Origin: a virus
Strand: one strand, 5' to 3'
Length of the DNA stretch: 64,000 nucleotides
Virus record (IMG/VR): IMGVR_UViG_3300029448_000010
Location: 19,931 to 83,930 of that record
A model generated the notes under the pieces. It did not search any database and was not told the origin of the DNA. It saw only the letters and a program-made list of their open reading frames with translations. Made by a program: the position numbers and the translations under genes. This document shows, piece by piece, positions 9,853-30,892 of the stretch. Every line of letters begins with the position of its first letter. Position 1 is the stretch's first letter.

Positions 9853-10692
9853 TTAAATTACCATTCCTTTTATTTCGGACATTTTATTATATCCTAACAT
9901 TTGTATTATCTTTTTACTTGTCTTTCCTATTGCTGAAAGTGAGATACCTGTTGATTCGGTTATATCGGATTTTCTAACACCTTCGTATCTGAATATATTA
10001 GACGCTACCCAACAAACACTAGCGTAGTATGCTCTAGGTTTATTAAAACAATGAGTCTCCACTAACGGTTCTAGTTTTTCTAATAGAGTAACTGCGTTAG
10101 AATAGAACATTATATCATCAGTTACTTTACTGCAAACCTGCTTTAACATAAAGGTAGGGTCTGCACCATACAATAGATTTTTGTTTTTGAAGTGATTAAT
10201 CATCTTCTGTACTAACCTATTTACTATTTTAATAGAACAGGAGTATTCCGAACATAACTCTTTCATTGAAGCAGGTGTCCTATTCTCTTTTAGAACATAG
10301 AAAACCGTAGCAGTACATCTTGCTTCTAATTTTATTTTACCGAATAGACCTTTCTGTTGAGAATCTAAATAACATTCTTCCACTCGCTCTTTTAGAGGGT
10401 GGTTTATCTGAATGCTAGATAGAATCATATTACAAGTCTGTAATCCTGAAAGGATATGTCTAGGTGTTGTTGAGTTGTTGCCTCTTCTATTAAACTTGTA
10501 AGAACCCTTACCTGAAATAATAGACCCTAGTTTACCTTTATCGGCTGAATGAGTAACTACTCCGTCATCAACCATTCTTACAGTCTCTTCAAACAATTCA
10601 GTAACTACGACTAAGCCGCAATCACTACATTCTGTCTCTCCCATTCTTTCATTATAATTAAATATTAAACTACCACATTCACTGCATTTCAT
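9853..10692 (-). CDS. tfb: Transcription factor B (TFIIB/TFB) homologue
   Basis: N-terminal Zn ribbon CSECGS...GETECSDCGLVV followed by two cyclin-fold repeats. Likely start is 10692. Confidence 0.85.
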   Translation of the reverse strand: MKCSECGSLIFNYNERMGETECSDCGLVVVTELFEETVRMVDDGVVTHSADKGKLGSIISGKGSYKFNRRGNNSTTPRHILSGLQTCNMILSSIQINHPLKERVEECYLDSQQKGLFGKIKLEARCTATVFYVLKENRTPASMKELCSEYSCSIKIVNRLVQKMINHFKNKNLLYGADPTFMLKQVCSKVTDDIMFYSNAVTLLEKLEPLVETHCFNKPRAYYASVCWVASNIFRYEGVRKSDITESTGISLSAIGKTSKKIIQMLGYNKMSEIKGMVI

Positions 10693-11962
10693 CCATCTCA
10701 ACCCTATATTCATTTTCATTACATTGTATGTATCTTTGTATTGTATTTACTATTTTAACCGTCATTGTGTCATTCAATAACGCTAAGGCTCTTGCTACAA
10801 ATTGGTCGCCTAGTGAAGAACCGCCTGTCATATTATCAATACAAATTGGCCCTCTCCAAGTACCTTCTCTAACAGGCATTTCAGGATAAGATTGTAATGT
10901 TAATTCTTCTTCTGTGCAAGTATCTGCATACATTTCTTTATATTCAGCATTTTGCTGGTCTATTTCCGCACAAGAAGCATCCCATTTTTGAATCGCTTCA
11001 TTAAAGGCGTGTTCGGTAATAGAAGGAGAATAAACAAAGGTCGAAACCATTTGAATATCAGACTTGAACTTATTGTTAGTCAGTTTCCAATCCCAACCTT
11101 TACCACGAACATACATAGTAATAGGCTCATTATCTTCATAGATTACCTTTAGTCGATTAGGGTATTTTTCTGCCATATCTTTAACTAACTGCTTGGCCCT
11201 ACTTTCAACAATATCCTGTTGCCTGTTCTGTTTCATAAATTCTATCATTACCTTTCTATTAGCAATTGTAGGAGCGTTACCTACGGTTCTCTCATAGAGT
11301 AATTCTGGAGAAATAAACATCCATTTTTTACTTCGTTTCTTATTATGAAGATAGAAACTACAAAAGTATTCTAATTCTTTAAGAGTCATTGTACCCCAAA
11401 CACCATCACTAACTTCGATGGCAATTTCATCATCACTTATTTGCTGACAATCTAACCTAACCTCGGTCTTGACAAAATCAGAATAGAAGTGAAAGGGTAC
11501 TTTATTTTCTAAACAATACTTTACATCTTCGGGAATACTCAATGCTGAATATAGTGCCTTTAGTAATTTACCTGCATCATGCTCAAATGCGGCTTTCAGT
11601 GCCACTCTTGCTAATGCACATGCAATTGTACTAAGATTCTCTTTTTGACCGTTTACTGTTAAACGATTACCTATTCTCCCAATTGCTATCGGACAAGAAC
11701 CTATGTTAATTACACTGTTAAAATCAGAACTGGGGAAATCAAACACAGACGAAGCACTTCGTCTATAACGGCTATATCTTCGGGTCTTCTTTAAAGCCAG
11801 TTTAAAGAAATCAGTCAATGCTTTGTGTATTGGGTCTTTTGCGCTTCTGTCGTTATTAAGAGTTATATTTCTTCTCAAAGGAATATGGGAAGAAGATATT
11901 TGAGTACTCCAATATCCGCCTGAATCGTCTGGTTTTCTAATTTGTATTGTTACTGTATTCAT
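10679..11962 (-). CDS. Hypothetical protein; C-terminal region may be an E2/UBC-like domain
   Basis: 427 aa; WRGPICIDN resembles the E2 catalytic GxICLD motif and is followed by a helix (GDQFVARALALLND). Confidence 0.45.
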   Translation of the reverse strand: MNTVTIQIRKPDDSGGYWSTQISSSHIPLRRNITLNNDRSAKDPIHKALTDFFKLALKKTRRYSRYRRSASSVFDFPSSDFNSVINIGSCPIAIGRIGNRLTVNGQKENLSTIACALARVALKAAFEHDAGKLLKALYSALSIPEDVKYCLENKVPFHFYSDFVKTEVRLDCQQISDDEIAIEVSDGVWGTMTLKELEYFCSFYLHNKKRSKKWMFISPELLYERTVGNAPTIANRKVMIEFMKQNRQQDIVESRAKQLVKDMAEKYPNRLKVIYEDNEPITMYVRGKGWDWKLTNNKFKSDIQMVSTFVYSPSITEHAFNEAIQKWDASCAEIDQQNAEYKEMYADTCTEEELTLQSYPEMPVREGTWRGPICIDNMTGGSSLGDQFVARALALLNDTMTVKIVNTIQRYIQCNENEYRVEMDEMQ

Positions 11963-12134: not shown

Positions 12135-12472
12135 TCTTCCCACCTATCCATTATGTTACATACATTACAATCTTTTCCTTTACAGTTTTTATCATGATAC
12201 TGTAAAGCATCGTATCGTTGAATAAAGTTTTTCTTAGCATAGTGATTAAAACCAATATCCACTGCTTCGGGAAACTCCCATAGTATTACTTGTATGGTCT
12301 GCCAAAGCCTATATTTTTTATCTGATTCATCTTCTAAACCAGAACATGCGTTAAGGGCTAATTTAATTCTATCCTTGGCAGAATTAGACCATTCGTTATC
12401 ATAAGATACAATGACTCTTGCGAAGTCATCATATTTCAAATCACGAATATGTCTAATTCTGCGAGATTTCAT
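12131..12472 (-). CDS. Hypothetical protein with C-terminal His/Cys cluster
   Basis: HDKNCKGKDCNVC; GGTGA SD upstream. Confidence 0.65.
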   Translation of the reverse strand: MKSRRIRHIRDLKYDDFARVIVSYDNEWSNSAKDRIKLALNACSGLEDESDKKYRLWQTIQVILWEFPEAVDIGFNHYAKKNFIQRYDALQYHDKNCKGKDCNVCNIMDRWEE

Positions 12473-12481
12473 CTAATCACC

Positions 12482-14341
12482 TTAGATTTCACATGCTCCG
12501 CCAGCACAAGCCAATTCGCCTGTTAAGTTAGTATCATCCTGTTCTTCAGTAACCTTAGTTAAATCAATCTTCTTCAGATTAACCATCATTTTATCATAGG
12601 TTTCTTTATCAATAGTTTCAAACGGTGCTTGTTTGTAAGTACCGCCATCATAAGGAAGAACAGAAAGACCATTGTAATAATGTCTATTCATCCATAGCCA
12701 TTCGCCCACATCATCCCATTCATCCTCTTTAACAGATAGAGTAGCGGAGACATTGTGAGTATTCAATCCATCAACATGCCCTGTTCTAACCCATCTAATG
12801 CTGAAATTCTTGACTCTCTCCATCAAATCAAATACTGATTCATGGCGAGTTATTGCATCTTGGGGTGCTTTTTGTGGTATAGAAATAACAGCCTGTTCTT
12901 CAGGATTAAAGTACTCATCCTCAACTAATTCAGGATGATTATTTAATAGATAAGAATAGATTGCTTCATTCTTTCCAACTCTAAGTCTTCTAACATAATA
13001 CTCATCATGCCATGCGTGAATACCGCTACTAGTACCTAATACTAAAGAAGTGGTTCCGGCAGGTTTTACACAAGTAATTCTTGCCGCAGGTTTAATCCCT
13101 ATCAACTTAGCAATTTTCTTATTCTCTTGCTTTGCCGCAAAGGAAGCCATTTCTAAATCTAAACCTTCCACGATATTAGAAGCAATACCTGTCATTGATA
13201 CTCCAAGTAAAGCATCCTTTTCAGTATTCTTACGCCATACTTCTCTTAGATAATGAAAGTCAGTATATCCGGCTTGAAGCGTTCCTAAGAATGCCGCCGC
13301 TTTTACTCTTGCTTCTAAGTCTGCTTGGTCTATTACATCAGAAGCATTTACTTCTGTTAGATTACAAAACTGATATGGTCGCAAGGCTATTTCACAACAA
13401 GGGTTAGTTCCCCAATCCTTGTCATTATTGAAATAGACCGCAGGTTCACCACTGCCACTATGTTGTATTCTTTCCCATAGACCCATAAAGAAGTCTTTAG
13501 TAACTCTATGTCTAAGGATTACTGCTGAATTGTTTGCTCTGCCTCTTTGTGGGTTGTTCTCCCACCAATTACCGGCTTTACAACTAATCATCTTTGAATC
13601 ATCAGCACTGAATAAACTAATCATAGCGGCTCTGCGAATACCACCGGCTAATACTGCATCTGCTAAATAACACATAATATCATGTGCTTCTATTGATTCT
13701 AATTTAGAGCCATTAGTTTTATTTTGAAGCATTCCTTCTATTTTAACTAAACATTCCCTTAATGGCTGAAAACCCGGTGCTTTTCCACCACTAGTCTTTA
13801 ATAGACTTCCTTTTGGTCTAATATCAGAATAATCAAAAATAGGACTACTACTCCTAATGCCGGTATAACACTCCAAAAGGATTCTAATTGAATCGGCCCA
13901 ACCTTCAATAGAGTCACTAATAAGATACCTGCGTTTTCTTTCGGGATTAGGTTGAATGATTTCTGGTAATTGCTCAACATGATGTCGTTGTACCGAATAT
14001 CCAACTCCCGTTCCACCGAGAAGTAAGAACATAGCCTCGCTAAAAGATAAAAGGGAATCAATAGGCATATAAGCACAATTATAAACCCTATTTGGGCTAA
14101 TTTCAATAGGCTTACCCCCAAATTGCATAGACCGCATAGAAGGGAGGACTTTCTTTGTTTTAACGAACTTTTCATATATTTCACCTATTTCTTTAGTTAA
14201 TTCAGGATATGATTTAATGTGCATATCTCGGTTTCTCTTGGTTATTTCTTCCCAAGTCTCTCTTCTTTTCTTTGCCGGTAAATACCTTGCATACTTCATA
14301 TGCACAGTAATATCCGATAATGTATCTATTGCTGTATTCAT
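12482..14341 (-). CDS. nrdJ: Class II (B12-dependent) ribonucleotide reductase, monomeric RTPR type
   Basis: VYNCA, GIRRAA, GTNPCCEI, FCNL, VKPAGT and C-terminal ACAGGACEI redox pair. Confidence 0.93.
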   Translation of the reverse strand: MNTAIDTLSDITVHMKYARYLPAKKRRETWEEITKRNRDMHIKSYPELTKEIGEIYEKFVKTKKVLPSMRSMQFGGKPIEISPNRVYNCAYMPIDSLLSFSEAMFLLLGGTGVGYSVQRHHVEQLPEIIQPNPERKRRYLISDSIEGWADSIRILLECYTGIRSSSPIFDYSDIRPKGSLLKTSGGKAPGFQPLRECLVKIEGMLQNKTNGSKLESIEAHDIMCYLADAVLAGGIRRAAMISLFSADDSKMISCKAGNWWENNPQRGRANNSAVILRHRVTKDFFMGLWERIQHSGSGEPAVYFNNDKDWGTNPCCEIALRPYQFCNLTEVNASDVIDQADLEARVKAAAFLGTLQAGYTDFHYLREVWRKNTEKDALLGVSMTGIASNIVEGLDLEMASFAAKQENKKIAKLIGIKPAARITCVKPAGTTSLVLGTSSGIHAWHDEYYVRRLRVGKNEAIYSYLLNNHPELVEDEYFNPEEQAVISIPQKAPQDAITRHESVFDLMERVKNFSIRWVRTGHVDGLNTHNVSATLSVKEDEWDDVGEWLWMNRHYYNGLSVLPYDGGTYKQAPFETIDKETYDKMMVNLKKIDLTKVTEEQDDTNLTGELACAGGACEI

Positions 14342-20957: not shown

Positions 20958-21434
20958 TCACTCTGAAGAATCATCTGACAAAAGCGAGTTAACGCTTCCA
21001 TCCCATGTCTTTAGACGATACTGCTTAGAAAGCATGTTTCGTACTTTCTTAGTCTGTGCCGAAGCATAGTCTTCAGCAGAGTCAAATACTCCGCCACCGG
21101 ACTTTGCGTGTTTTAGAGACACTGCCGCTATAATACCATCATGGTTATAGTACGCTAATGCCGCTTCTTCAACAACTCCACAAATGCGGTCAATTGCTAC
21201 TCTAACTGCTGCTGGAACACTACTTCTTTGTCCACGACGGCCCAAAGGTGAACCATCACGGCCCTTCAATAGTGCCTTTAGTGCGTTTGTAGCCGCATCT
21301 CTTTCATTCGGGTTTTCCTGACCAACTTGAAGGTGCAACTCAACAACTTGCTTGAGTGCGCCATCTAACTGTTCATCTGCTTCTAGGTAATCGTTAATCT
21401 CGATAACGAGACTGTCCCATTTTACATCTTCCAT
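20958..21434 (-). CDS. Hypothetical protein, paralog family A (copy 1)
   Basis: Likely start MEDVKW after GGAGG; shares HAKSGGG and WDG motifs with the ORFs at 24780 and 25583. Confidence 0.75.
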   Translation of the reverse strand: MEDVKWDSLVIEINDYLEADEQLDGALKQVVELHLQVGQENPNERDAATNALKALLKGRDGSPLGRRGQRSSVPAAVRVAIDRICGVVEEAALAYYNHDGIIAAVSLKHAKSGGGVFDSAEDYASAQTKKVRNMLSKQYRLKTWDGSVNSLLSDDSSE

Positions 21435-21509
21435 ATTTCTCAATTCCTCCCCGCTAACTACGGGGCAAACTCTCCACTGGCTAACCATATATAAGGAGAG
21501 TCAATGACC

Positions 21510-22120
21510 TATTTCCGATGTAATTCAGACACCTTTACTTATTACACCTACAACATAATGATTATCAATAATAATTAACTAATTACGATATATCGAATTA
21601 TAATTAAAAAAGAAATGGCTCATTTTAATTAGGCAAACATTATTCCACCGGAAAAATAAGAGGAATAATAATAGGTAGTAAAACGACAGGGTTGTGATAC
21701 ATAACTATTCTAATTCTAGGAGGTTTGACATTATTCCATTATTCCACTTTTTTTAGGGGGTCACTATCTCATAGGGTCTATACATAACCCTAGAGAATCT
21801 AAGGGGTTCATATCCCATAAGAAACAAAGGGGATATACTTGTCAGATTGCCTTAGAGTATATGGAATAATGGAATAATGGAATAAAAAAATATCTTTATA
21901 CTTATGTTACATAACCCTCTAGTTTCTTTAATTATATTTCCATTTTGGGGTGGAAACATCGGTGGAAACATCTTTTCCATTGTATATTATATGATATATT
22001 ATATTCATATTGAATACCTATACCATAGTTATACGCTCAATTGAAAGATAGATTAACTAATAGTCCACTATTCCGGTAGTGAAATATTACCTCCAAATAA
22101 TCGCTCGTTAATACTATGTA
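21510..22120. repeat. AT-rich ORF-free tract with direct and inverted short repeats (candidate replication origin or genome end)
   Basis: (GGAATAAT)x3 at about 21863-21885, inverse ATTATTCC copies at about 21639 and 21730-21746, (GGTGGAAACATC)x2 at about 21949-21972. Confidence 0.5.
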
Positions 22121-22174
22121 TCTTGGTTGTAGTGGCACTTTGCAGAACGGAAACCCTAAAAAAATAGGAGGGGA

Positions 22175-22206
22175 GGCTCCATAGGGGGCGAACCCCCTAT
22201 GAAGCC
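22175..22206 (-). terminator. UUCG hairpin terminator of cassette 1
   Basis: Minus strand GGCTTCATAGGGGG-TTCG-CCCCCTATGGAGCC, then a pyrimidine run and T7. Confidence 0.7.
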
Positions 22207-22255
22207 AACTTTGGGTGCAATACCCAGTTAACTGAGTGAAAAATCAGATAATTCT

Positions 22256-22516
22256 TCATTCGTCGTTGCGCTTATTGTTCAACCTGCGAATCATGTTGAC
22301 AATTTTGTTCTGGTCGTATTTGGTAAAACTACCTGACATGACTATTCTCAAATCTTCATTGAGATGAAACCTGTCAAGTCTGATGCTGGGATTAACATCC
22401 ATCAATCGCCCGACAAAAGCCAGTATTTTCTTTCTATATCTAAAAGCATCAGAGCAGTATTGAATATCAATACTCCCTGCGCCAGTCATCAAGTCTATGT
22501 TCATTTGTGCGCCCAT
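22256..22516 (-). CDS. Hypothetical protein (cassette gene)
   Basis: 86 aa; GGTGA SD and CCTATATCAT TATA upstream. Confidence 0.7.
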   Translation of the reverse strand: MGAQMNIDLMTGAGSIDIQYCSDAFRYRKKILAFVGRLMDVNPSIRLDRFHLNEDLRIVMSGSFTKYDQNKIVNMIRRLNNKRNDE

Positions 22517-22565
22517 ATTATCACCTTGTAATGATAATGGCTCCTGTATATGATATAGGCTCCCT

Positions 22566-22600
22566 CAAAGTTACGACCATATGGTTGTAAATCGGCTTTG
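22566..22600. repeat. Conserved palindromic inter-cassette element 1
   Basis: CAAAG TTACG ACCATATGGT TGTAA ATCGG CTTTG. Confidence 0.85.
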
Positions 22601-22681
22601 GTAATTTGCGTTCTTAAAAAAATAGAAAAAAATGATGCAGGGCCGATTTAAGTCACCCTGCATCATTTTTTACATCAAACC

Positions 22682-23047
22682 TCATACATGCCATCGAATA
22701 GCCGTTTTTGGCATTGTCATCAGCAGTGAAAACGCTGCTTTGATATACGATTCTTCATTTTCTTTATCGAAGAAATCACAAGTTATCGACAATATTTCTT
22801 GAAGGTTTTCGGGAACATCACTGAAATTGATTGAGGGTTTCAATCCATTTTCAAGTACCAAGTTTTTGAAATCTGCATACATTTTAATTCCATTATCGGA
22901 CATCAAAGTTATTCCATCTCGTTCTCGGACACATTGACCACATAGAACAGTTATGTTGATTTCTGACAATTCATCTTCATGTTCTGAACCATAAAACCCA
23001 TAACTGACCGTTTCTCCACATTCGCACATACTCTCACACCATGACAT
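22682..23047 (-). CDS. Hypothetical Zn-binding protein (cassette gene)
   Basis: CECG...CGQC; GGTGA SD and CCTATATCAT TATA upstream. Confidence 0.7.
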   Translation of the reverse strand: MSWCESMCECGETVSYGFYGSEHEDELSEINITVLCGQCVRERDGITLMSDNGIKMYADFKNLVLENGLKPSINFSDVPENLQEILSITCDFFDKENEESYIKAAFSLLMTMPKTAIRWHV

Positions 23048-23094
23048 ATTATCACCTATTAATATCTATTATTGAAGATGATATAGGGCCGCTA

Positions 23095-23125
23095 CAAAGT
23101 CACAACCATATGGTATTAGACTTTG
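23095..23125. repeat. Conserved palindromic inter-cassette element 2
   Basis: CAAAG TCACA ACCATATGGT ATTAGA CTTTG. Confidence 0.85.
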
Positions 23126-23142
23126 AGCATCCTTCGGAGAAC

Positions 23143-23594
23143 AAAAAAAATAATGAAGAAAATCCGGTTAATAGGTCAATCAACTACAATACTGCATTGT
23201 TTTTACCCATTTCTCTAGAACTATGGGACTATTTTTTAGCAGAATCACATGTAGTTATGTGATTGACTTTTCACCTTCATTTCTCCATATGGGAATTGAA
23301 AGGTGTTGGACAGGCTATCTTTTAGATTCCTGCATTGTGAGTGAATTATCTTGCATCACTAAGTTTGAAAGTCCGTTATGGATTTCATATATGAGGTCAC
23401 AAACTACACAATCTATTCATTGACAGTCAATCAACGCCCTTTTGAGGAACATAGGCCAAGAGCCACTATTCTAACTCATTTGAGCATCGAATACTGGTTA
23501 GACTCGCCACCACAGCGATTAGTGCATACCTTACGCCCCTTCAAGCGCATTCGGTCACCAACTATCCCAAGAACCCGCTAAAGTACCTTGAGAC
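23143..23594 (-). ncRNA. Candidate ~450-nt non-coding RNA occupying a whole cassette
   Basis: Same promoter and initiator (ATATTATTGTCTCAA) as the 25307 gene and a terminal T-tract, but no minus-strand ORF of 60 aa or more; 5' hairpin GUCUCAAG/CUUGGGAU. Confidence 0.45.
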
Positions 23595-23630
23595 AATAAT
23601 ATGGCACATTACCGTATATATCGGCTACTA

Positions 23631-23661
23631 CAAAGTTACTACCATATGGTAGTGTACTTTG
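23631..23661. repeat. Conserved palindromic inter-cassette element 3
   Basis: CAAAG TTACT ACCATATGGT AGTGTA CTTTG, a near-perfect palindrome. Confidence 0.85.
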
Positions 23662-23730
23662 GTGATAGCCTATTTCAAAAAAAAAATAATAGAAAGCCGA
23701 TGTAAGTCACTTTCTATTATTTTTTTATTT

Positions 23731-23879
23731 TGGACACCCACTATGGCACTTTAGACGACCATGTTTCATCAGTTAATGTCAGACTACTGGCCAGTAGTCC
23801 AAATACACCGGATGAGTTTTTGTTTCCCCGTCATTTTTCTGTACCAAACTATTCGGTCAGATTGTGCCACAGTGAGTGT
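23731..23879 (-). ncRNA. Candidate structured RNA: 16-bp closing stem ending in CCA, with internal hairpins
   Basis: ACACUCACUGUGGCAC (23879-23864) pairs with GUGCCAUAGUGGGUGU (23749-23734), immediately followed by CCA. Confidence 0.5.
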
Positions 23880-23884
23880 GGAAT

Positions 23885-24061
23885 CTATTCATCCCATAAA
23901 GCCGCTCTGAAATGCTTTTCGTTGAATGTGTCGCTATCTTCACTTAGCATAGCACATAATTCATTCACTAGGTCTTCATGGCTTATTAGGCCATCAGACA
24001 TAGTAACATGATTGAGTACTTTTACTAATGCGAGATAATGTCTTTTTGAAAACTTGCTCAT
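23885..24061 (-). CDS. Small hypothetical protein (58 aa)
   Basis: Not in the track; MSKFSKRHYLALVKVL...FNEKHFRAALWDE; ATGA-coupled to the 24058 gene. Confidence 0.65.
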   Translation of the reverse strand: MSKFSKRHYLALVKVLNHVTMSDGLISHEDLVNELCAMLSEDSDTFNEKHFRAALWDE

Positions 24062-24522
24062 TCTTCTTCATCTCCTGATAGGTCTAAGTCCCGAATACAC
24101 AATATAGCCGCAGTACGGTTTCTATCGAATGTGTCGTCATTATCGAATAGAGTTTCAGTCATTTTATGTAATTGAAATGACACTACAAGTTTCATATCTT
24201 CATCCTTAATCAAGGGAAGTTGTTTCTGTAACTTCAATAATTTATTGATTCTGCCTCTAATCCATGCACGGTCAATCATTTTGTTACCTGTGCTACTAAC
24301 TTCATCTATTTGCACAACTCCGACATCAGTACCAAACACAACATAATCAACGCATGTAATTGTTAATTTGTTAAGGCTCATAGTCCATTCAATATCCGTG
24401 CTTGTATCTCTTTCACTCCACATACTAACCATTGTGTTAGTATCTGTGAATTGATATACCATTTGTTTCTTGATTGTTCCATCATTATACACTGTATCGC
24501 CATAGGTAGTTATTATCTCCAT
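24058..24522 (-). CDS. Hypothetical protein (cassette gene, probably leaderless)
   Basis: 154 aa; ATG lies about 25 nt downstream of CCTAAATA, with no SD. Confidence 0.7.
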   Translation of the reverse strand: MEIITTYGDTVYNDGTIKKQMVYQFTDTNTMVSMWSERDTSTDIEWTMSLNKLTITCVDYVVFGTDVGVVQIDEVSSTGNKMIDRAWIRGRINKLLKLQKQLPLIKDEDMKLVVSFQLHKMTETLFDNDDTFDRNRTAAILCIRDLDLSGDEEE

Positions 24523-24558
24523 GTTAATATGGCATATTGGGGGCTATTTAGGCTAGCA

Positions 24559-24594
24559 CAAAGCCGCTACCATATGGTTGTAAAATGTGCTTTG
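24559..24594. repeat. Conserved palindromic inter-cassette element 4
   Basis: CAAAG CCGCT ACCATATGGT TGTAAAATGTG CTTTG. Confidence 0.85.
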
Positions 24595-24779
24595 GCGTTT
24601 GGCGTTCTTAAAAAAAAAGGGCTGGGAAAGGGGAATAGCGAGTAGGTTTCATTCTTCTCTCGCTATCCCCCTTTCTCTCATCTTATCGCATTGACTCTGT
24701 TCAGATTATTATAATTTTAACTGGTATTCCGATTGCCCGATGAGTATTAATTGGGGCCACAAAGGGTTTGAAGTGAGTA

Positions 24780-25307
24780 TCAGTGTGATTCCTCCGTTGA
24801 GTCCTCGTCACTTTCTTCATTGTCTGATGTTTCCTTAACTAGCGGAGTTATGTTAGTTAGTCCATCATCAGTCATTGTACCATCCCAACGGTCATCTTTC
24901 AATGCCGCCTTTAGTACTCTTACTGCTTTTGTTGCCATATCTTTTGCGTATGCGTCAATATCAGCGTAAACACCGCCGGTTTTGCCATGAGGAAGCATAA
25001 CTTCCAAAACAAGGTTAGCGTCAGTAATGGTTGCAAAGGCAGTTTGAATGCGGTTCTGAACAGAATCCACAACAGCCTGTATTGCTGGCTCTAGTGTTGA
25101 GCCACGGCCCTTCTTGATAGGTGAGTTTGGCAGTGTTTTGCACAATGCCCTTACTGCCTCCCAAAAACGGTTCCTATCTTCATCAGATGCGGCATCGTCG
25201 CCAGCATCTAAGTTTACTGTAATTACATTAGTCATGGCTCCAGCGTCATTGTGCTGTAACCATGCTCTGATTTCGTTAGACTTCATTATCCATTTATCGT
25301 TTTCCAT
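24780..25307 (-). CDS. Hypothetical protein, paralog family A (copy 2)
   Basis: Likely start MENDKW after GGAG; N-terminal half nearly identical to 25583..26068 (FWEAVRALCKTLPNSPIKKGRGSTL). Confidence 0.8.
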   Translation of the reverse strand: MENDKWIMKSNEIRAWLQHNDAGAMTNVITVNLDAGDDAASDEDRNRFWEAVRALCKTLPNSPIKKGRGSTLEPAIQAVVDSVQNRIQTAFATITDANLVLEVMLPHGKTGGVYADIDAYAKDMATKAVRVLKAALKDDRWDGTMTDDGLTNITPLVKETSDNEESDEDSTEESH

Positions 25308-25400
25308 TCTTTTCATCTCCTGTATTAAAATAACTCCTAATACCAACCTCAAACCCTTTGAGACAATAATATAGCACCCTGCGGTATATGTAGGGTTGAG

Positions 25401-25451
25401 CAAAGATACAACCATATGGTGTTAAGTGATTATGTAATAATCATCGCTTTG
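25401..25451. repeat. Conserved palindromic inter-cassette element 5
   Basis: CAAAG ATACA ACCATATGGT, a 26-nt self-complementary insert, then CTTTG. Confidence 0.8.
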
Positions 25452-25487
25452 CGACTTAACAGCCTATTAAAAAAATAAAAGGCTACA

Positions 25488-25543
25488 ACCGGCATAGACT
25501 GAATTAACAGATTAGAACTAGTTTTTAATTAGTCTATGCCGGT
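25488..25543 (-). terminator. Hairpin terminator of a cassette
   Basis: ACCGGCATAGACT...AGTCTATGCCGGT 13-bp inverted repeat; T-tract follows on the minus strand. Confidence 0.65.
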
Positions 25544-25582
25544 CATAATGTAAGTGGGGCTACGGGGGATATTCCGCATCAA

Positions 25583-26068
25583 TCATTCTTCTTCTTCAAC
25601 CTCCAGATTGAAGGTTTGAGCATTTAGTCCATCACGACTACCATCCCAAATACCATTCTTTAGACGCTTTTTGAGCGAACCTACAATAGTACTCGACATG
25701 TATGCTGAATACTCATCAGCAGTGAATAAACCACCGCCAGACTTACCGTGCTTCAATAATAGCATATTCATGCTACCAGTAGCAAAAAAATCAGAGGCCG
25801 CCTGTGCGACTTCATCTGATATTGAGTCAAGAACCGCTTGAATTTCGGGAGCAAGTGTTGAACCCCTTCCTTTCTTAATTGGGCTATTTGGCAGTGTTTT
25901 ACATAATGCTCTAACTGCTTCCCAAAATCTATCTCGGTCTTCATCTGTTGTTGCGCTATTACCTGCTTCAAGGTTAACTTGAATTACATTTGTCATAGCA
26001 CCTGCGTCATTTTCATTTAGCCATGCACTTATCATGCTGGCTCTTTCTGTCCATTTCTCTATATCCAT
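25583..26068 (-). CDS. Hypothetical protein, paralog family A (copy 3)
   Basis: 161 aa; MDIEKW..., HGKSGGG and WDG motifs. Confidence 0.8.
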   Translation of the reverse strand: MDIEKWTERASMISAWLNENDAGAMTNVIQVNLEAGNSATTDEDRDRFWEAVRALCKTLPNSPIKKGRGSTLAPEIQAVLDSISDEVAQAASDFFATGSMNMLLLKHGKSGGGLFTADEYSAYMSSTIVGSLKKRLKNGIWDGSRDGLNAQTFNLEVEEEE

Positions 26069-26170
26069 TAATAATCAACTCCTAATTGTGTTTGATTAAT
26101 GCTTCAATCCCCCGAAGCAATAATATAGCCACTTAGGGTATAATTAGGCTAGTCGTTCATTCTTCACTGG

Positions 26171-26225
26171 CAAAGCACCTACCATATGGTTGTGAGTCGT
26201 AATTCGTCTATATAGATGGCCTTTA
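26171..26225. repeat. Conserved palindromic inter-cassette element 6
   Basis: CAAAG CACCT ACCATATGGT TGTG...CTTTA; a degenerate seventh copy TACAACCATATGGCTTTGTA lies at 26384-26403. Confidence 0.75.
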
Positions 26226-26912
26226 TGACGATTAAAAACATTCGTTTTGGAGAATAAGGTATTTTTTAATAATGAAAGATAACACTTTAATTGAGTTGAT
26301 GCGATTATTTAGGTGATTTTGGCTTGTATGCGAAGTCACCTATATATTTTTAAAAAATCTATATAGGCCAACATAGCAGTTTATACAACCATATGGCTTT
26401 GTACAAATTTTTTATTTGCCTATATTAACATTAAAATGCCCATATTTAGGTGTTAATTAGCCAATATTAACATTTAAAGGTTAATTATTTCGCCATTATA
26501 CCGGCATACTTATACCATAAACAGGACTCGCTTAATACGGGATTGATAGTGTCAGACGATAATGATGCAATTAAACACCTTAATAATATAGTTAACATTA
26601 TTACACCAATACTTTCGGATATTAAAACTAATACTGAATCAAAGACTAATATACAAGTTACACCGGATAATAAGGTTAAATTAAAAGAAATAGCAAAGAT
26701 GCTTAAAACATTAAAAGCAAAGATTATAGCATTATACCATCCAAAGCCCACTAAACAAACTTCATTAAATATAAAATAACATTAAATCATTAAGATTTTA
26801 TTCTGGGAATACATTAATTAATAAAAAAATGCTGACGCTAGTGCCACAAAAATTCCGCCACAATTTTTCAAAAACGATTCTATTTTAAACAATTAACAGG
26901 AAAAGGATTAAT

Positions 26913-27203
26913 ATGACATGGAAAAATAGTATTAAAAAAGCCAAAAAGGTTTATGTTGTCGTAAAGTTCGGAGCATATCATAATCCTAAAGACCTTAAAT
27001 TGTCTGTCTTTGATGATAGGAAAAAGGCAGAAGAGGCTTTACAAAAAGTAACTTCATACAACGAAGATGGCAGTATAGATGACGGTAGTGGAAAAAGAAC
27101 GAAAGGCGAGGCATATATTTACCAAACTTACATGAATGAAGATTTCCCAAATACACCTAGATTACTAACGCCACTCAAAGATAGACAACAGAAAAAGAAG
27201 TGA
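26913..27203 (+). CDS. Tagged hypothetical protein (MTWKNSIKK)
   Basis: First convincing plus-strand gene; N-terminal W-tag. Confidence 0.7.
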   Translation: MTWKNSIKKAKKVYVVVKFGAYHNPKDLKLSVFDDRKKAEEALQKVTSYNEDGSIDDGSGKRTKGEAYIYQTYMNEDFPNTPRLLTPLKDRQQKKK

Positions 27204-27208
27204 TTAAT

Positions 27209-27376
27209 ATGACACGCTGTAATTATTTAGAAGGCTGGTTCGATAAGGAATCTGCTAAATTAGACAAAGTTGAGAATGATTATGGTACTTGTTTAGTTAC
27301 AGGTCAAAAGAAAAAGGCTACTACTTTAACTAAGGCTCAAGCATGGGCCAAAGTATTCAGGAGGAATAAGGTATGA
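27209..27376 (+). CDS. Small hypothetical protein (55 aa)
   Basis: Not in the track; MTRCNYLEGWFD...; fills the gap and overlaps the next gene (ATGA). Confidence 0.55.
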   Translation: MTRCNYLEGWFDKESAKLDKVENDYGTCLVTGQKKKATTLTKAQAWAKVFRRNKV

Positions 27377-27885
27377 GTTGGCAAGATATAGTGAAAGTAT
27401 CAATTACAGAGGGTCTATTCAATCAGACAAAAGAAAAGATGAGAGACATAAAAGCACAGTTAAGTGGTTTAGAGAATAGTTATACGAAAACGGCTTTAGA
27501 CGAGATAGTTCATATCTATGAACAAGCAAAGAAGGCTCATAGGGAAAATAATAAAAAACTACTTGGATTTCATCTTAGAACAATGACAATAATAGGAAAA
27601 GACATATCAAACTACTTTGATGCACAAGATATAGTAAAAGGTTCAGATAATGAACGAAATATAAGTGCAGATTCTTTTAGAGAATACGGAAAGGCTTCAA
27701 AGGAAAACCCTACATCTGCAAAAGACGATATTTCAACCCGTTCTCCTGAATTACAAAAAGGCGCACGGACATATCCACAAGGTATTGAAAAGGTAGGCAA
27801 GTTATTTTCTAAAGGAAAAATCGACATGAAGAGATATACAGAACTTCGTAAAGAATTACAGGAAATATTCGGAGTGGGGGAATAG
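27373..27885 (+). CDS. Tagged hypothetical protein (MSWQDIVK)
   Basis: N-terminal tag; internal partial repeat AQDIVK. Confidence 0.7.
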   Translation: MSWQDIVKVSITEGLFNQTKEKMRDIKAQLSGLENSYTKTALDEIVHIYEQAKKAHRENNKKLLGFHLRTMTIIGKDISNYFDAQDIVKGSDNERNISADSFREYGKASKENPTSAKDDISTRSPELQKGARTYPQGIEKVGKLFSKGKIDMKRYTELRKELQEIFGVGE

Positions 27886-27886
27886 T

Positions 27887-28537
27887 ATGAGTTGGAAAAA
27901 TATACTAAAGAGAGAGAAAACACCCCTTGTCCCTGATGAAGCGATGTTTGATATTCCTACTGGGAATTTAAAAAGTCCTCCTGAAAGCAGGTATTTTGAA
28001 AATGCAAAGGTGACTTATATGGAATCTGGCCAATTTGTGTTTGATGAAATAGATAAAAGATATATAATGACTGATAAATACAAAAGAGGTGAAGTAGCGG
28101 CAGATAGAGCAACTATGGGAGAAATGGATGGAAGACAAGTTGTTTCTTTTGCCCCCCGCAGAGTGGCGAAAGATGCCTTTATTAAAGTCTTTGACCCCTA
28201 CATGGACTTTATGCAATCTTGGCATAATCTAGAAACTTTACAAGAAGCAAATAAAGAATGGGAATATCTAACCCATAGAGTTATGCTCACTGTTCACACC
28301 GCATTAAACAATTTATTCCCAACAGTGGAAGACGCATACAAGTCTAGAAAGTTAAATGGTTTCTTACATTGGAAAGGTGAATACTATCAGAATCTAATGA
28401 ATGAGAAACTACCTGATACTATGGAACAAATTAAACCAGCGAAGAAACAACCATCGAAGAAAGAGCCTCCAAAGAAAAGAGACTATATGGCTGAAAGAAG
28501 AGAAAAAATAAAGCGTCTTAGGAGGGATAGGAAATGA
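27887..28537 (+). CDS. Tagged hypothetical protein (MSWKNILK)
   Basis: N-terminal tag. Confidence 0.7.
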   Translation: MSWKNILKREKTPLVPDEAMFDIPTGNLKSPPESRYFENAKVTYMESGQFVFDEIDKRYIMTDKYKRGEVAADRATMGEMDGRQVVSFAPRRVAKDAFIKVFDPYMDFMQSWHNLETLQEANKEWEYLTHRVMLTVHTALNNLFPTVEDAYKSRKLNGFLHWKGEYYQNLMNEKLPDTMEQIKPAKKQPSKKEPPKKRDYMAERREKIKRLRRDRK

Positions 28538-28854
28538 GTTGGAAAAATATACTCAAAGACTCAAAAGCCGCTAATGAAGCACTAGAGATGGATTTCTTTA
28601 TGAATAATTTAGAAAAGGCTCTAAAGTATGAAACTCAAGATATTCGTTTTGCTGACTTTGGCACTAAACAAAAGGTGCTAGATATTGCTAAAAAAGATAA
28701 TTATAACCTACGGAATGCGGATGGAGATTATCACTTTATGACTCTTTCCGTTTCTGATTCTGAAGTAACCTTTGATGTTAAAAGAGGATTCATAGGGATG
28801 ATGGTAAGGTTTAGTTTTGAAGGCGATAAAGTCAAATTTAAAATAATTGGGTGA
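28534..28854 (+). CDS. Tagged hypothetical protein (MSWKNILK)
   Basis: N-terminal tag. Confidence 0.7.
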   Translation: MSWKNILKDSKAANEALEMDFFMNNLEKALKYETQDIRFADFGTKQKVLDIAKKDNYNLRNADGDYHFMTLSVSDSEVTFDVKRGFIGMMVRFSFEGDKVKFKIIG

Positions 28855-28859
28855 TTAAG

Positions 28860-29108
28860 ATGACATGGGAAGATATAATTAAAGTTGGGAGCCAAACATT
28901 CGACTATCGAGAAAGAGCCGGACAACAAATGGTTGCGGATAGAAAAAAACAAGAGTTGGAAAAACTACGACTTAAAACACAAAAAGAAATTAGCCAAATC
29001 TTGCGAGAAGTGCAGGAAAAACAAAAGTTGCTTGCTCAAAAGAAGAAGATACTAGAGGCAAAAGAAGTAGCAGATTTAGATGCTTTAGGTATCTCTTTAG
29101 GCAATTAG
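28860..29108 (+). CDS. Tagged coiled-coil protein (MTWEDIIK)
   Basis: Start after GGTGA SD. Confidence 0.7.
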   Translation: MTWEDIIKVGSQTFDYRERAGQQMVADRKKQELEKLRLKTQKEISQILREVQEKQKLLAQKKKILEAKEVADLDALGISLGN

Positions 29109-29116
29109 GTGATGCT

Positions 29117-29413
29117 ATGTCTTGGAAAGATTCTCTAAAGAAGTATAGAACCAATGTAAGTGGTTCAGGTATGATTCCTTTAGACCATGTACTAAAAGAC
29201 CATAGTGAATTAGGTTTGAAAATTAGAGGCCTTATGGGTGCAGTAGGTAGTCTTAGGAATAATATGCCACGAAGCGTTAGTAAAGTGATGGTTAAGTTAG
29301 ATAAAATAAAAGAAGAAATGTATAGAGTCGAACAACTTATTACTGCTATGAATGAGTCTTATTCTGCTATGGATAAAGAAGATTGGCAAAAGACAATGGA
29401 GGACTTAGAATGA
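29117..29413 (+). CDS. Tagged hypothetical protein (MSWKDSLK)
   Basis: N-terminal tag, GGTGA SD. Confidence 0.7.
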   Translation: MSWKDSLKKYRTNVSGSGMIPLDHVLKDHSELGLKIRGLMGAVGSLRNNMPRSVSKVMVKLDKIKEEMYRVEQLITAMNESYSAMDKEDWQKTMEDLE

Positions 29414-29781
29414 GTTGGTTTGATATTATTAAAATGATGACTCCTAGAGAGTTTTTACAGGCACTAAATCTAGATGGTGACATTAAAGGAAGTGTGGGTA
29501 AAGCAGGTACTAATATGTCATTACATCACGATGCTGGTTTTGTTAAAGTCAATCAATCTAAAAAAGGCCCGTACATCGTAAATGTTGATGGTGAAAGATT
29601 TACCGATTATAGTCTAAGTAAGATACTGCCTCAAGTTAAAGACCAAGTTAAAAAGTCCCAAACTTCTTATACAGATGTCTTGCTAAGAGAAGCAGGGGCG
29701 GTTAGTACGGCCACCCCTAGTATTATTAATGTAAGATATTCTAAGAAAAAGGAGGATGAGAAGGATGCCGTCACAGAGTAA
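29410..29781 (+). CDS. Tagged hypothetical protein (MSWFDIIK)
   Basis: Likely start 29410 (ATGA overlap, GGAGG SD). Confidence 0.7.
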   Translation: MSWFDIIKMMTPREFLQALNLDGDIKGSVGKAGTNMSLHHDAGFVKVNQSKKGPYIVNVDGERFTDYSLSKILPQVKDQVKKSQTSYTDVLLREAGAVSTATPSIINVRYSKKKEDEKDAVTE

Positions 29782-30892
29782 GAAGAAGAATATTCAAAGA
29801 GATGAGTACGGCAATACTATTGATTCTCCTACCTTAGATTTTATTATCGAATTTAAGAAATGGGAAAAGCAACTTAGAGGTATTAGTGCTAAACGGATTC
29901 AATCAGAAGGCCGAGAGAATAAAGACGGCTCTAGAAAAGCCGTTCCTAAAACCTTGTATGGTCAATTAAGACAACATGTTACTGCGGCATTCAGAAGACC
30001 TAATTCTGTAAATGCTGGAGATAAAGGCGCATATAAGTTATTAGATAAAATTACTAAAGCAATTAAGACTAGGACTGTTTTTACTGAAGAAGACCTAGAT
30101 GACCTTAAAGAGTTTCAAGATGACTTGACTGTATTTGAACAGGCAGAAGGAAAGTTAAATCCTAGAAATACTCTATTTACTACTCCTAAAAGTTTCGATG
30201 AAGTGGATGGAGAAGTAGTTCCTAGTGAAGCCACTAAGCCACTATACGGTCATTATGTGGATAAATTTTTTGTGAGAAAATATCCTAAAAAGGGATATAA
30301 AGTAAAAACTAAATGGTCTAATTCTAGTATGAATACTGCTAATCCACCATTGGCTCAAGCCTTATTTGCAGGGCCAAAAAGCCCAAGTGACTTAGGTATT
30401 GAAAAAGGATTAATTCAAATCGTCGATGATGCAATAGAGGAATTAGAAAGTGAAAAGATTAATCTATACACTATTGGAATTAAGAGAGCAGGGGCATTAG
30501 CAAGACTACCTTCTGTTAAGAAGTGGGTTAATTCTGCTATTAGAAATAAAAGATTCTATCCTGAAAACAGTGGTAAGATTAATTTGAGGGCTATTGGTAA
30601 TGCTCTATTGGCCCAGACTTTTCCTATTAAAAGTGAAGCCGAGCAAAAGGTGTTAATGATAGCCGCTACTAATAAGCAGGTAAATTATGCTCAAGATATA
30701 TTAAGATTCAAAGTAGGTCAAATTACACCTGCGGTCATGACTACTTTAATTAGAGAAGTTATTTCAAGAGGTTCGCAAGAACACATTAAAGTTAGAAATG
30801 GATATTATTTACAGTTAAGAGGATTGTCCGACCCTCCTTCTGAAACACATAAAGACATTAAAAAGAGTTGGATAGAAATGCTATGGGCGTGA
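29756..30892 (+). CDS. Hypothetical protein with tag-like C-terminus (KKSWIEML)
   Basis: 378-aa basic protein. Confidence 0.7.
   Translation: MRRMPSQSKKKNIQRDEYGNTIDSPTLDFIIEFKKWEKQLRGISAKRIQSEGRENKDGSRKAVPKTLYGQLRQHVTAAFRRPNSVNAGDKGAYKLLDKITKAIKTRTVFTEEDLDDLKEFQDDLTVFEQAEGKLNPRNTLFTTPKSFDEVDGEVVPSEATKPLYGHYVDKFFVRKYPKKGYKVKTKWSNSSMNTANPPLAQALFAGPKSPSDLGIEKGLIQIVDDAIEELESEKINLYTIGIKRAGALARLPSVKKWVNSAIRNKRFYPENSGKINLRAIGNALLAQTFPIKSEAEQKVLMIAATNKQVNYAQDILRFKVGQITPAVMTTLIREVISRGSQEHIKVRNGYYLQLRGLSDPPSETHKDIKKSWIEMLWA

Follow-up and report, generated by a model that had tools for sequence, protein, structure and literature searches.

The locus examined here raises the question of whether a short palindrome repeated between small viral genes is a promoter element, a site of gene exchange, or both. 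The palindrome, hereafter the core, heads each unit of a gene array in a 64,000-nt stretch of viral DNA (the window), which comprises bases 19931-83930 of the 83,930-bp IMG/VR virus record IMGVR_UViG_3300029448_000010 (91% complete). A first-pass annotation of the window had offered two models, an upstream activator or operator site for early promoters and an attC-like site for cassette shuffling. The reading preferred here, to which we give about an even chance of being right, is that the core is a promoter-linked regulatory joint that also serves as a crossover point.

The core, ACCATATGGT, was present in six exact copies in the window (22576, 23105, 23641, 24569, 25411 and 26181) and was not found outside the array in the rest of the 83,930-bp record, where the reversed-pattern control also gave 0. 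Allowing up to one mismatch, 10 matches were found in the window against 1.86 expected, a count reached by none of 100 shuffles. All six exact copies were preceded on the plus strand by CAAAG at exactly five nucleotides, and the CAAAG-N5-ACCATATGGT sites spanned 22566-26190. The copies, the constant left spacer, a degenerate copy and a terminal half-site had all been listed in the first-pass annotation, and a sequence search recovered each of them. The degenerate copy is a boundary core at 26388-26397, assigned to neither strand, that reads ACCATATGGC on the plus strand and GCCATATGGT on the minus strand with one mismatch. It lies in a divergent intergenic region with TATA-like boxes on both sides, and the GCCATATGGT variant is the outermost copy in six of six relatives. 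The half-site, TGGTTGTAGTGGCACTTTG at 22124-22142 (likewise without strand; CAAAG-N11-ACCAAGA on the minus strand), forms the other end of the array and is conserved in relatives. The genes of the array zone are all on the minus strand, and both coding strand and GC skew switch at approximately 26.4 kb.

Read on the minus strand, the units share one order: the terminator hairpin and T-tract of the previous unit, ACCATATGGT, CTTTG, a TATA-like box, and then a gene or a non-coding RNA (ncRNA). The terminator lies 20-45 nt from ACCATATGGT, which is followed by a 5-nt spacer, CTTTG, a further 5-6 nt (22 nt in unit 1) and CC-TAWATA, with GCYATATTATTG after the TATA-like box in three units. Downstream of the TATA-like box, a unit begins with a Shine-Dalgarno sequence and ATG, with an ATG about 28 nt past the start of the box, or without an open reading frame (ORF). 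Of the layout originally described, the order of palindrome and TATA stood, and the TATA strings themselves were found on the minus strand in the unit alignment. The hairpin with T-tract held for five of the six units (a long hairpin with a T7-T10 tract, z = -3.4 to -5.8), the ncRNA unit having a T8 tract only; a simple terminator scan overlooks such long-loop hairpins. Several terminators are symmetric (A-tract, hairpin, T-tract) and so could terminate transcription in both directions. The units are autonomous promoter-gene-terminator modules headed by the joints, with the CTTTG arm on the promoter side. A predicted start at the G of ATTATTG would place the TATA-like box at about -28 to -21, CTTTG at -41 to -37 and the centre of the core at about -52, the classical location of archaeal upstream activator and operator sites.

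The link to promoters holds throughout the lineage. A scan of IMG/VR recovered at least 118 loci with the core (L numbers below designate loci of related viruses), at least 61 of which are arrays of 2-10 cores at 0.3-1 kb spacing, and six relatives found through their helicase (71-82% amino acid identity) carry 5-8 exact cores each in the syntenic place. Across 369 unique copies from these loci the core is near-invariant, with the form ACC-ATAT-GGT. Among 360 unique copies, CTTTG was found 3-8 nt from the core on 63% of sides, with a peak at 5 nt, control pentamers being rare, and ACC(C/T)TA-TATA was enriched 3-10 nt farther out than CTTTG. Over 612 sides, the presence of CTTTG was associated with a TATA-like box (odds ratio 5.4, p = 3e-16) and with an outward ORF (odds ratio 2.4, p = 3e-7), from which it follows that the core is symmetric and that each arm belongs to the promoter of its own side. 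One outward ORF was present at 52% of cores and two at 23%, the latter being divergent promoters that share a core; 25% had none. Together with the position of the core about 52 bp upstream of the predicted start and a virus-encoded TFB homologue (see below), the association of CTTTG with TATA bears out in part the model of an upstream promoter element.

Outside the lineage the full palindrome is rare. In 185,579 species genomes it was found as 15 singletons in unrelated bacteria, a number near chance, and in one viral-looking contig; it is not a repeated element of cellular genomes. The contig, L150 (NZ_NZTP01000027.1; 14.7 kb), belongs to a metagenome-assembled genome (MAG) labelled 'Altibacter sp.' and has, besides its six cores, the cassette ncRNA. 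It almost certainly derives from a magrovirus and was binned into the bacterial MAG by mistake.

The gene content indicates that the virus is of magrovirus type, an archaeal tailed virus whose assignment to Marine Group II is drawn from its genes and the literature. The left arm encodes an ATP-dependent ligase, a thermosome-type chaperonin, a class II ribonucleotide reductase and a UvrD helicase, and the right arm a terminase, portal, prohead protease and capsid. Outside the window the record encodes a split family-B polymerase, RFC, an ERCC4/XPF nuclease with a helix-hairpin-helix motif, a PD-(D/E)XK nuclease, an RNase H-like protein and an AAA_24 (Sak4/RadA-like) ATPase; a PC4-like protein is also encoded by the virus. 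This set agrees with that of published magroviruses of Marine Group II archaea (PMC5434244). At 9853-10719 on the minus strand lies a divergent TFB/TFIIB homologue (PF08271 zinc ribbon, E = 1e-4), a protein without mention in the magrovirus paper (PMC5434244). Its family profile matched human TFIIB (E = 4.9e-10, positions 19-263) and the Pyrococcus TFB core (5e-9), and by profile match it contains the zinc ribbon and both cyclin folds. The homology was thus detected with a profile built from the protein's own homologues; a direct search with the PF00382 cyclin model gave no match, and a single-sequence fold reached a pLDDT of 32. The magrovirus gene set and the TFB homologue justify an archaeal reading of the promoters, of which the homologue is a candidate reader. 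Sigma-70-like sites were not enriched (28 vs 31.8).

The second part of the question, exchange at the core, was addressed by comparison of relatives, among which unit content, order and strand all differ. The 154-aa family is on the opposite strand in L125, L127 and L132, as is the 121-aa family of unit 5 in L125 and L127; paralog family F0 and the ncRNA occur on the other strand in L125, L127 or L132, and the 86-aa family of unit 6 occupies a different array slot in L132. Homology to L125 stops at the third core and homology to L132 at the second, and with L125, L127 and L132 it resumes at the half-site at 22124-22142. The ends of BLAST high-scoring segment pairs (HSPs) fell within 25 nt of a core in 33 of 152 cases against 14.3 expected (2.3-fold, p = 4e-6), a figure in which the ends are not independent; it and the homology ends are subject to the caveat that HSPs run through any conserved block.

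Five clean events in total were found, each with the crossover inside a 10-14-bp core. L128 and L129, which are approximately 90% identical, are exactly one 702-bp core-to-core unit apart, and the single site of L129 consists of the left flank of one L128 site and the right flank of the next, ACCATATGGTTGTA being the only stretch common to them. The four further events are an indel between L094 and L124, an unequal replacement between L099 and L108, and two replacements between L043 and L107; in each, all four breakpoints lie within 30 nt of a core, and the flanks diverge at the first or last base of the core. DNA contigs from other samples track the window sequence to 23126 and 26195, beside cores, and then diverge. 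Circle, deletion and inversion joints were looked for in two runs of DNA and two of RNA (the latter two metatranscriptomes from two studies), which were available as assembled contigs and not as reads; none was seen, and this absence is not evidence. The comparisons show that related viruses differ by whole units that were inserted, deleted, replaced or inverted, with the crossover inside the 10-14-bp core. The cassette shuffling suggested by the first-pass annotation, with breakpoints in the palindrome, is thus matched by an order that is not fixed and by breakpoints at the core.

The bases beside the core were also found to covary. The left and right spacers had been described as often complementary; across the core, where a single long hairpin or cruciform would form, complementarity was 0.30 against a null of 0.375, not above chance. 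On either side, the first two or three spacer bases after GGT paired with the bases before A(N)CC-TATA on 214 of 464 sides, compared with 51 +/- 6 in shuffles, and complementarity over 3 nt was present on 112 sides compared with 15 +/- 4. With an anchor independent of the spacer, Watson-Crick combinations numbered 221 vs 109 shuffled, A-C combinations 7 vs 32 and G-T combinations 48 vs 53; the depletion of A-C and tolerance of G-T hint that one strand folds. These anchored covariation tests replaced a permissive hairpin finder that gave too many matches in shuffled controls. Covariation of the spacer with the bases before the TATA box implies a putative short stem-loop, with the promoter-side form GGT-spacer-(CTTTG loop)-spacer'-ACC and the TATA box directly after it. 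In the window the stems are 4-6 bp long, with a bulged base (A-G-CC) in four of the six units. Folded as free single-stranded DNA (ssDNA), they gave -0.1 to -5.2 kcal/mol (z = -1.5 to +1.4) and were no more stable than shuffles.

A joint with both functions could work as follows. The accessory-gene zone is hypervariable among relatives and is probably expressed early. A symmetric (dimeric) regulator, viral or host, would bind the core and its arms near -52, abutting the position of the TFB recognition element (BRE), and, with the host's RNA polymerase and the viral TFB homologue, would control the cassette promoters jointly. Since the core is the only sequence common to otherwise unrelated units, the general machinery of the virus would resolve exchanges there; the recombination and repair genes present in the record that might do so are the Sak4/RadA-like ATPase, XPF/ERCC4, PD-(D/E)XK, the UvrD helicase and the ligase. 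Breakage at small hairpins may aid the exchange, and symmetric cores with two-way terminators would let units work in either orientation.

Several points weigh against such a dual-purpose joint. The start sites are predicted, and a single RNA contig end coincides with the prediction (G 25364), two others stopping 28-50 nt short, which is a weak hint only. An outward ORF of at least 40 aa is missing on both sides of about 25% of cores. An identity of 10-14 bp appears short for RecA/RadA-type homologous recombination, and the crossovers look more site-specific or microhomology-like. Pfam searches of the small ORFs gave no clear sequence-specific dimeric factor. Finally, recognition of duplex DNA by a protein would not require the covarying stem, which points to a folded form.

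That stem is the main reason why a folded-DNA mechanism is kept in view, and it leads to the alternative that survives best, to which we assign a distinctly lower probability than to the preferred reading: a dedicated recombination site, in which the core and stem-loops fold as ssDNA hairpins or a cruciform, a specific enzyme cuts and rejoins ACC/ATAT/GGT, and the promoter is cassette cargo. For the enzyme, one could think of a viral protein not yet recognised as such or of a host recombinase, XerA for instance; integron attC sites and phages that borrow Xer are analogues. Such a site would fit the immediate divergence of the flanks in five of five clean events, stems in which sequence varies with complementarity kept and a base is bulged in four of six window units, the closing of the array in a conserved half-site, and a core near-invariant in 369 copies. 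Against it stands the absence of a tyrosine, serine, Y1-HUH or LAGLIDADG enzyme. The first-pass annotation had seen no recombinase in the window, and this now extends to the full 83.9-kb record (91% complete): tyrosine recombinases (PF00589) were absent, the control search having matched 14 of 14 genomes, no serine recombinase was present, the Y1 HUH transposase (PF01797) was absent, LAGLIDADG_3 nuclease and RadA (PF08423) were not found, and KaiC-like hits were weak P-loop matches only. In addition, the window stems of 4-6 bp have the stability of shuffles as free ssDNA; the 3' arm of the stem always adjoins the TATA-like box and CTTTG tracks the promoter side, both needless for pure recombination; and the four runs, though assembled contigs only, contained no deletion, inversion or circle joints.

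A bolder form of the same idea, which is a shade more doubtful again, is that magroviruses carry an integron-like gene-capture system without a known integrase, in which a new viral or hijacked host enzyme would cut the folded core. The proposed capture site is a twin stem-loop, GGT-spacer-CAAAG-spacer'-ACC / ATAT / GGT-spacer-CTTTG-spacer'-ACC. If this were true, self-expressing cassettes (the ncRNA and probable anti-defence genes) could be cut out, turned round and passed among viruses that co-infect one of the most abundant archaea of the ocean.

We consider it improbable that the element is purely regulatory, with breakpoints falling at the core as the sole conserved sequence after illegitimate replacement and selection. 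BLAST HSPs do extend across any conserved block, and the promoter repeats of halovirus HF2 are conserved without shuffling (PMC8707807). Yet exchange between cores yields just what is seen, namely precise indels of one unit with a single hybrid core left behind and inverted units with a core at each border, and random illegitimate events would not hit 10-14 bp at both ends five times. That the virus infects bacteria, such as Flavobacteriia, and that its motifs are bacterial promoter or operator elements is hardly credible: the six-core 14.7-kb contig binned in the 'Altibacter' MAG, terminators that look bacterial-intrinsic and the resemblance of TG-n-TATATT to an extended -10 element are set against an encoded TFB/TFIIB homologue, thermosome, RFC, ERCC4/XPF nuclease and PC4-like protein, the sigma-70 scan, the lack of a -35 element at the right spacing, and a gene content that is that of magroviruses (PMC5434244).

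Among known systems, the promoter early stem-loops (PeSLs) of T4-type phages (PMC2839356, PMC4122927) are likewise composite terminator/promoter motifs; they lie in hyperplastic regions, where they separate small early genes, most of them ORFans. The array shares with them a composite promoter/terminator repeat in a hypervariable zone and indels and replacements among relatives that end in the motif, and a dedicated recombinase is found in neither; PeSL exchange has been attributed to the phage's own recombination system, and mini-circles have been demonstrated (PMC2839356, PMC4122927). PeSLs differ in having a sigma-70 promoter and a G/C stem-loop and no invariant palindrome, whereas the promoters here are of archaeal TATA type, with a TFB homologue and no enrichment of sigma-70-like sites, and the palindrome is a perfect one of 10 bp. 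Also unlike PeSLs, the array has unit-specific covarying stems, crossovers within 10-14 bp and frequent inversion of whole units.

Closer in domain are the class I intergenic repeats of HF2, an archaeal tailed virus. These repeats of about 58 bp stand before early and middle genes, combine an upstream motif, a TATA motif and a start-site motif, and initiate at a fixed G (PMC8707807). The same layout is seen in the predicted promoters here, with the core and CTTTG, CC-TAWATA, and GCYATATTATTG in three units. In contrast, the HF2 repeats are non-palindromic, keep position and orientation among relatives and have no sequence similarity to the present element. The TATA-plus-inverted-repeat motif of HGTV-1, another tailed virus of archaea, has already been likened to PeSLs (Sencilo et al. 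2013, as related in PMC3950731). The early anti-defence regulons of crenarchaeal viruses (PMC11065993) are also clusters of small, unrelated single genes with a virus-specific regulatory sequence around BRE/TATA, and some of their inverted repeats are thought to bind the small viral regulator Aca8, a leucine-zipper protein. They differ in belonging to rudi-, lipothrix- and bicaudaviruses, in inverted repeats that overlap the BRE and do not lie upstream of it, and in that no exchange at the motif has been reported (PMC11065993). For the cassettes described here we only infer a possible anti-defence role.

Integron attC sites resemble the array in their cassettes and imperfect palindromes, and may do so in a structure that is conserved more than its sequence, in conserved triplets and the crossover at the stem base, and in bulged bases. 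Unlike integrons, the array has neither an integrase nor attI/Pc, its centre and not its ends is conserved, and its stems are much shorter. Membership of the attC class, as originally suggested, is unsupported, because each cassette has its own promoter (a TATA-like box) and terminator, and no IntI-type or other tyrosine, serine or HUH recombinase is present in the record. The lack of a Y1 HUH transposase in the record also sets the array apart from REP/BIME-RAYT and IS200/IS605 systems. The element differs from PeSLs, HF2 repeats, the HGTV-1 motif and the crenarchaeal regulons in its invariant palindromic core, in unit-specific covarying stems that end at the TATA box, and in crossovers that fall only within the core, with units often inverted.

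Few uncultured host-virus pairs of the surface ocean are as abundant as Marine Group II archaea and their magroviruses. To our knowledge, nothing is known of magrovirus gene regulation and diversification, and two main magrovirus papers make no mention of a palindrome or of a promoter. Arrays of ACCATATGGT provide a sequence handle for the accessory, probably early or anti-defence, gene pool of the lineage in metagenomes, and the joints a predicted promoter/operator architecture, together with a virus-encoded TFB, for an uncultured archaeon. They also represent modular shuffling at a defined joint outside bacteriophages, with a crossover precision that makes a new recombination mechanism possible.

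One cassette contains no protein-coding gene. Unit 4, at 23143-23594 on the minus strand, has no ORF of at least 35 aa on that strand, and we interpret it as a cassette that carries a structured ncRNA of a new family. It gave the deepest RNA contigs (depth 110 and 621 vs 2-28 for neighbours), 4-100 times deeper than those of neighbouring units in the two metatranscriptomes. The listed RNA contigs stay within units, and DNA contigs bridge cores; stretches of the zone that no RNA contig covers carry no weight as evidence. A conserved structured 5' domain (23390-23570; approximately 190 nt, nine helices) precedes the T8 tract at 23143-23150. The ncRNA sequence is conserved in inverted orientation in L125 (7118-7310) and L127 (7125-7316), and a covariance model found it at 12 distinct loci in all, among them L091 (12128-12320), L105 (2015-2209), L043 (4497-4687), L116 (5865-6054), L150 (3912-4097), L132 (6590-6776) and L108 (3449-3632). 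Every match falls inside a single core-to-core unit, beginning 55-78 nt from the neighbouring core and directed away from that core. In the model-fitted alignment, double changes occurred in 34 of 49 pairs (136 cells vs 48 +/- 6 shuffled and 23-38 in slid controls), counts that on a fitted alignment lean toward the model. An independent alignment of five sequences gave 18 double-change pairs compared with 9.3 in shuffles. Rfam gave no match at gathering or permissive thresholds in the window, the zone, L091 or L105. As to function, one guess is an anti-defence or decoy RNA.

The remaining units, all on the minus strand, are described here in the order in which they follow on that strand. Joint 1 (26118-26190) comprises the core at 26181-26190, the CTTTG arm at 26171-26175, a TATA-like box at 26137-26148, the conserved GCTATATTATTG and a predicted start at about 26118. 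It heads a gene of paralog family F0 (25583-26068; 161 aa with an acidic C-terminal tail), followed by a terminator at 25462-25547 (long hairpin and T7 tract, z = -5.8). Joint 2 (25364-25420) has its core at 25411-25420, a stem GGTTG/CAACC with CTTTG in the loop, a TATA-like box at 25383-25394 and a predicted start at G 25364; its gene, of a second F0 subfamily, lies at 24780-25316 and its terminator at 24610-24675 (19-bp hairpin and T9 tract, z = -3.6). Joint 3 (24523-24578; core 24569-24578, TATA-like box 24542-24552) contains the bulged stem GGTAGC/GCTA(G)CC. The mRNA of unit 3 is probably leaderless, since the ATG lies about 28 nt after the start of the TATA box. The unit consists of two overlapping ORFs (23885-24522), of 154 aa at 24058-24522 and 58 aa at 23885-24061, and ends at a symmetric terminator (23677-23725; A-tract, hairpin, T10; z = -3.4).

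Joint 4 (23594-23650), which heads the ncRNA, consists of the core at 23641-23650, CTTTG, a TATA-like box at 23612-23623, GCCATATTATTG and a predicted start at about 23594. Joint 5 (23048-23114; core 23105-23114, CTTTG, TATA-like box 23077-23088) carries the Shine-Dalgarno sequence GGTGAT before a Cys-rich 121-aa gene at 22682-23047, and its terminator at 22616-22673 again has an A-tract, hairpin and T-tract (z = -4.3). The hairpins of the unit 5 and unit 3 terminators (22634-22667 and 23690-23720) have the loop GUGACUUAnAUCGGC in common, and the repeated module therefore reaches into the terminators. Joint 6 (22517-22585) contains the core at 22576-22585, CTTTG, the bulged stem GGTC/GA(G)CC, a TATA-like box at 22546-22559 and the same Shine-Dalgarno sequence, GGTGAT. 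It precedes an 86-aa gene at 22256-22516 and a terminator at 22158-22206 (14-bp GC-rich hairpin and T7 tract, z = -4.5).

The cassette proteins gave no PHROGs or Pfam match. Family F0 has three members in the window (20958-21434, 24780-25316 and 25583-26068, minus strand) and 2-4 copies per related virus, which fall into three subfamilies; the motifs HGKSGGG and WDG are conserved, and the C-terminal tail is acidic. The copy beside the helicase has no palindrome and is found at the syntenic place in every relative; a coreless conserved promoter outside the array, with CCTTATATA at 21488-21496, stands before this third F0 paralog of the window. The AlphaFold2 model of F0 was all-alpha (pLDDT 84); no matches were found among ESM Atlas neighbours or in the PDB by Foldseek, and VIA-align gave a generic three-helix bundle only. 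A 92-aa coiled-coil ORF was considered as the binding protein and rejected, as it has a weak bZIP-zipper match but is acidic and without a basic region.

Restriction-modification pressure was likewise considered as the origin of the core and set aside, since CATATG is not avoided (27 vs 31 expected). Over the whole record, several other 6-bp palindromes are strongly avoided (GATATC 0 vs 20.5 expected, GGTACC 0 vs 12, CCTAGG 0 vs 12, CCATGG 0 vs 14, GCATGC 1 vs 15), and TATATA is rare (15 vs 59 expected), a pattern suggestive of restriction by the host and of a need to avoid stray TATA boxes. Some relatives have cores at a spacing of just about 100 bp (L089 4106-4302 and L033 7601-7889); after each core come a small hairpin, the strong Shine-Dalgarno sequence GGAGGGTG and an acidic micro-ORF of 6-7 codons (MFDCDD, MFFDDDE). 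These closely spaced units are mini-cassettes.

No tRNAs were found. On the plus strand at 26913-29800, many small right-arm proteins share an N-terminal peptide (MSWKNILK-like). The family-B DNA polymerase is split into two ORFs (record positions 10433-11329 and 12297-13964) with a gap of about 1 kb that holds small ORFs; the same arrangement has reportedly been noted by Philosof et al. in group B magroviruses. Between the array and the F0 and helicase genes lies a conserved, AT-rich, ORF-free region of approximately 600 bp (21500-22120), near the GC-skew minimum. Within it GGAATAATG occurs in both direct and inverted copies and GTTTCCACC as a tandem repeat; the region could be a replication origin or control region.

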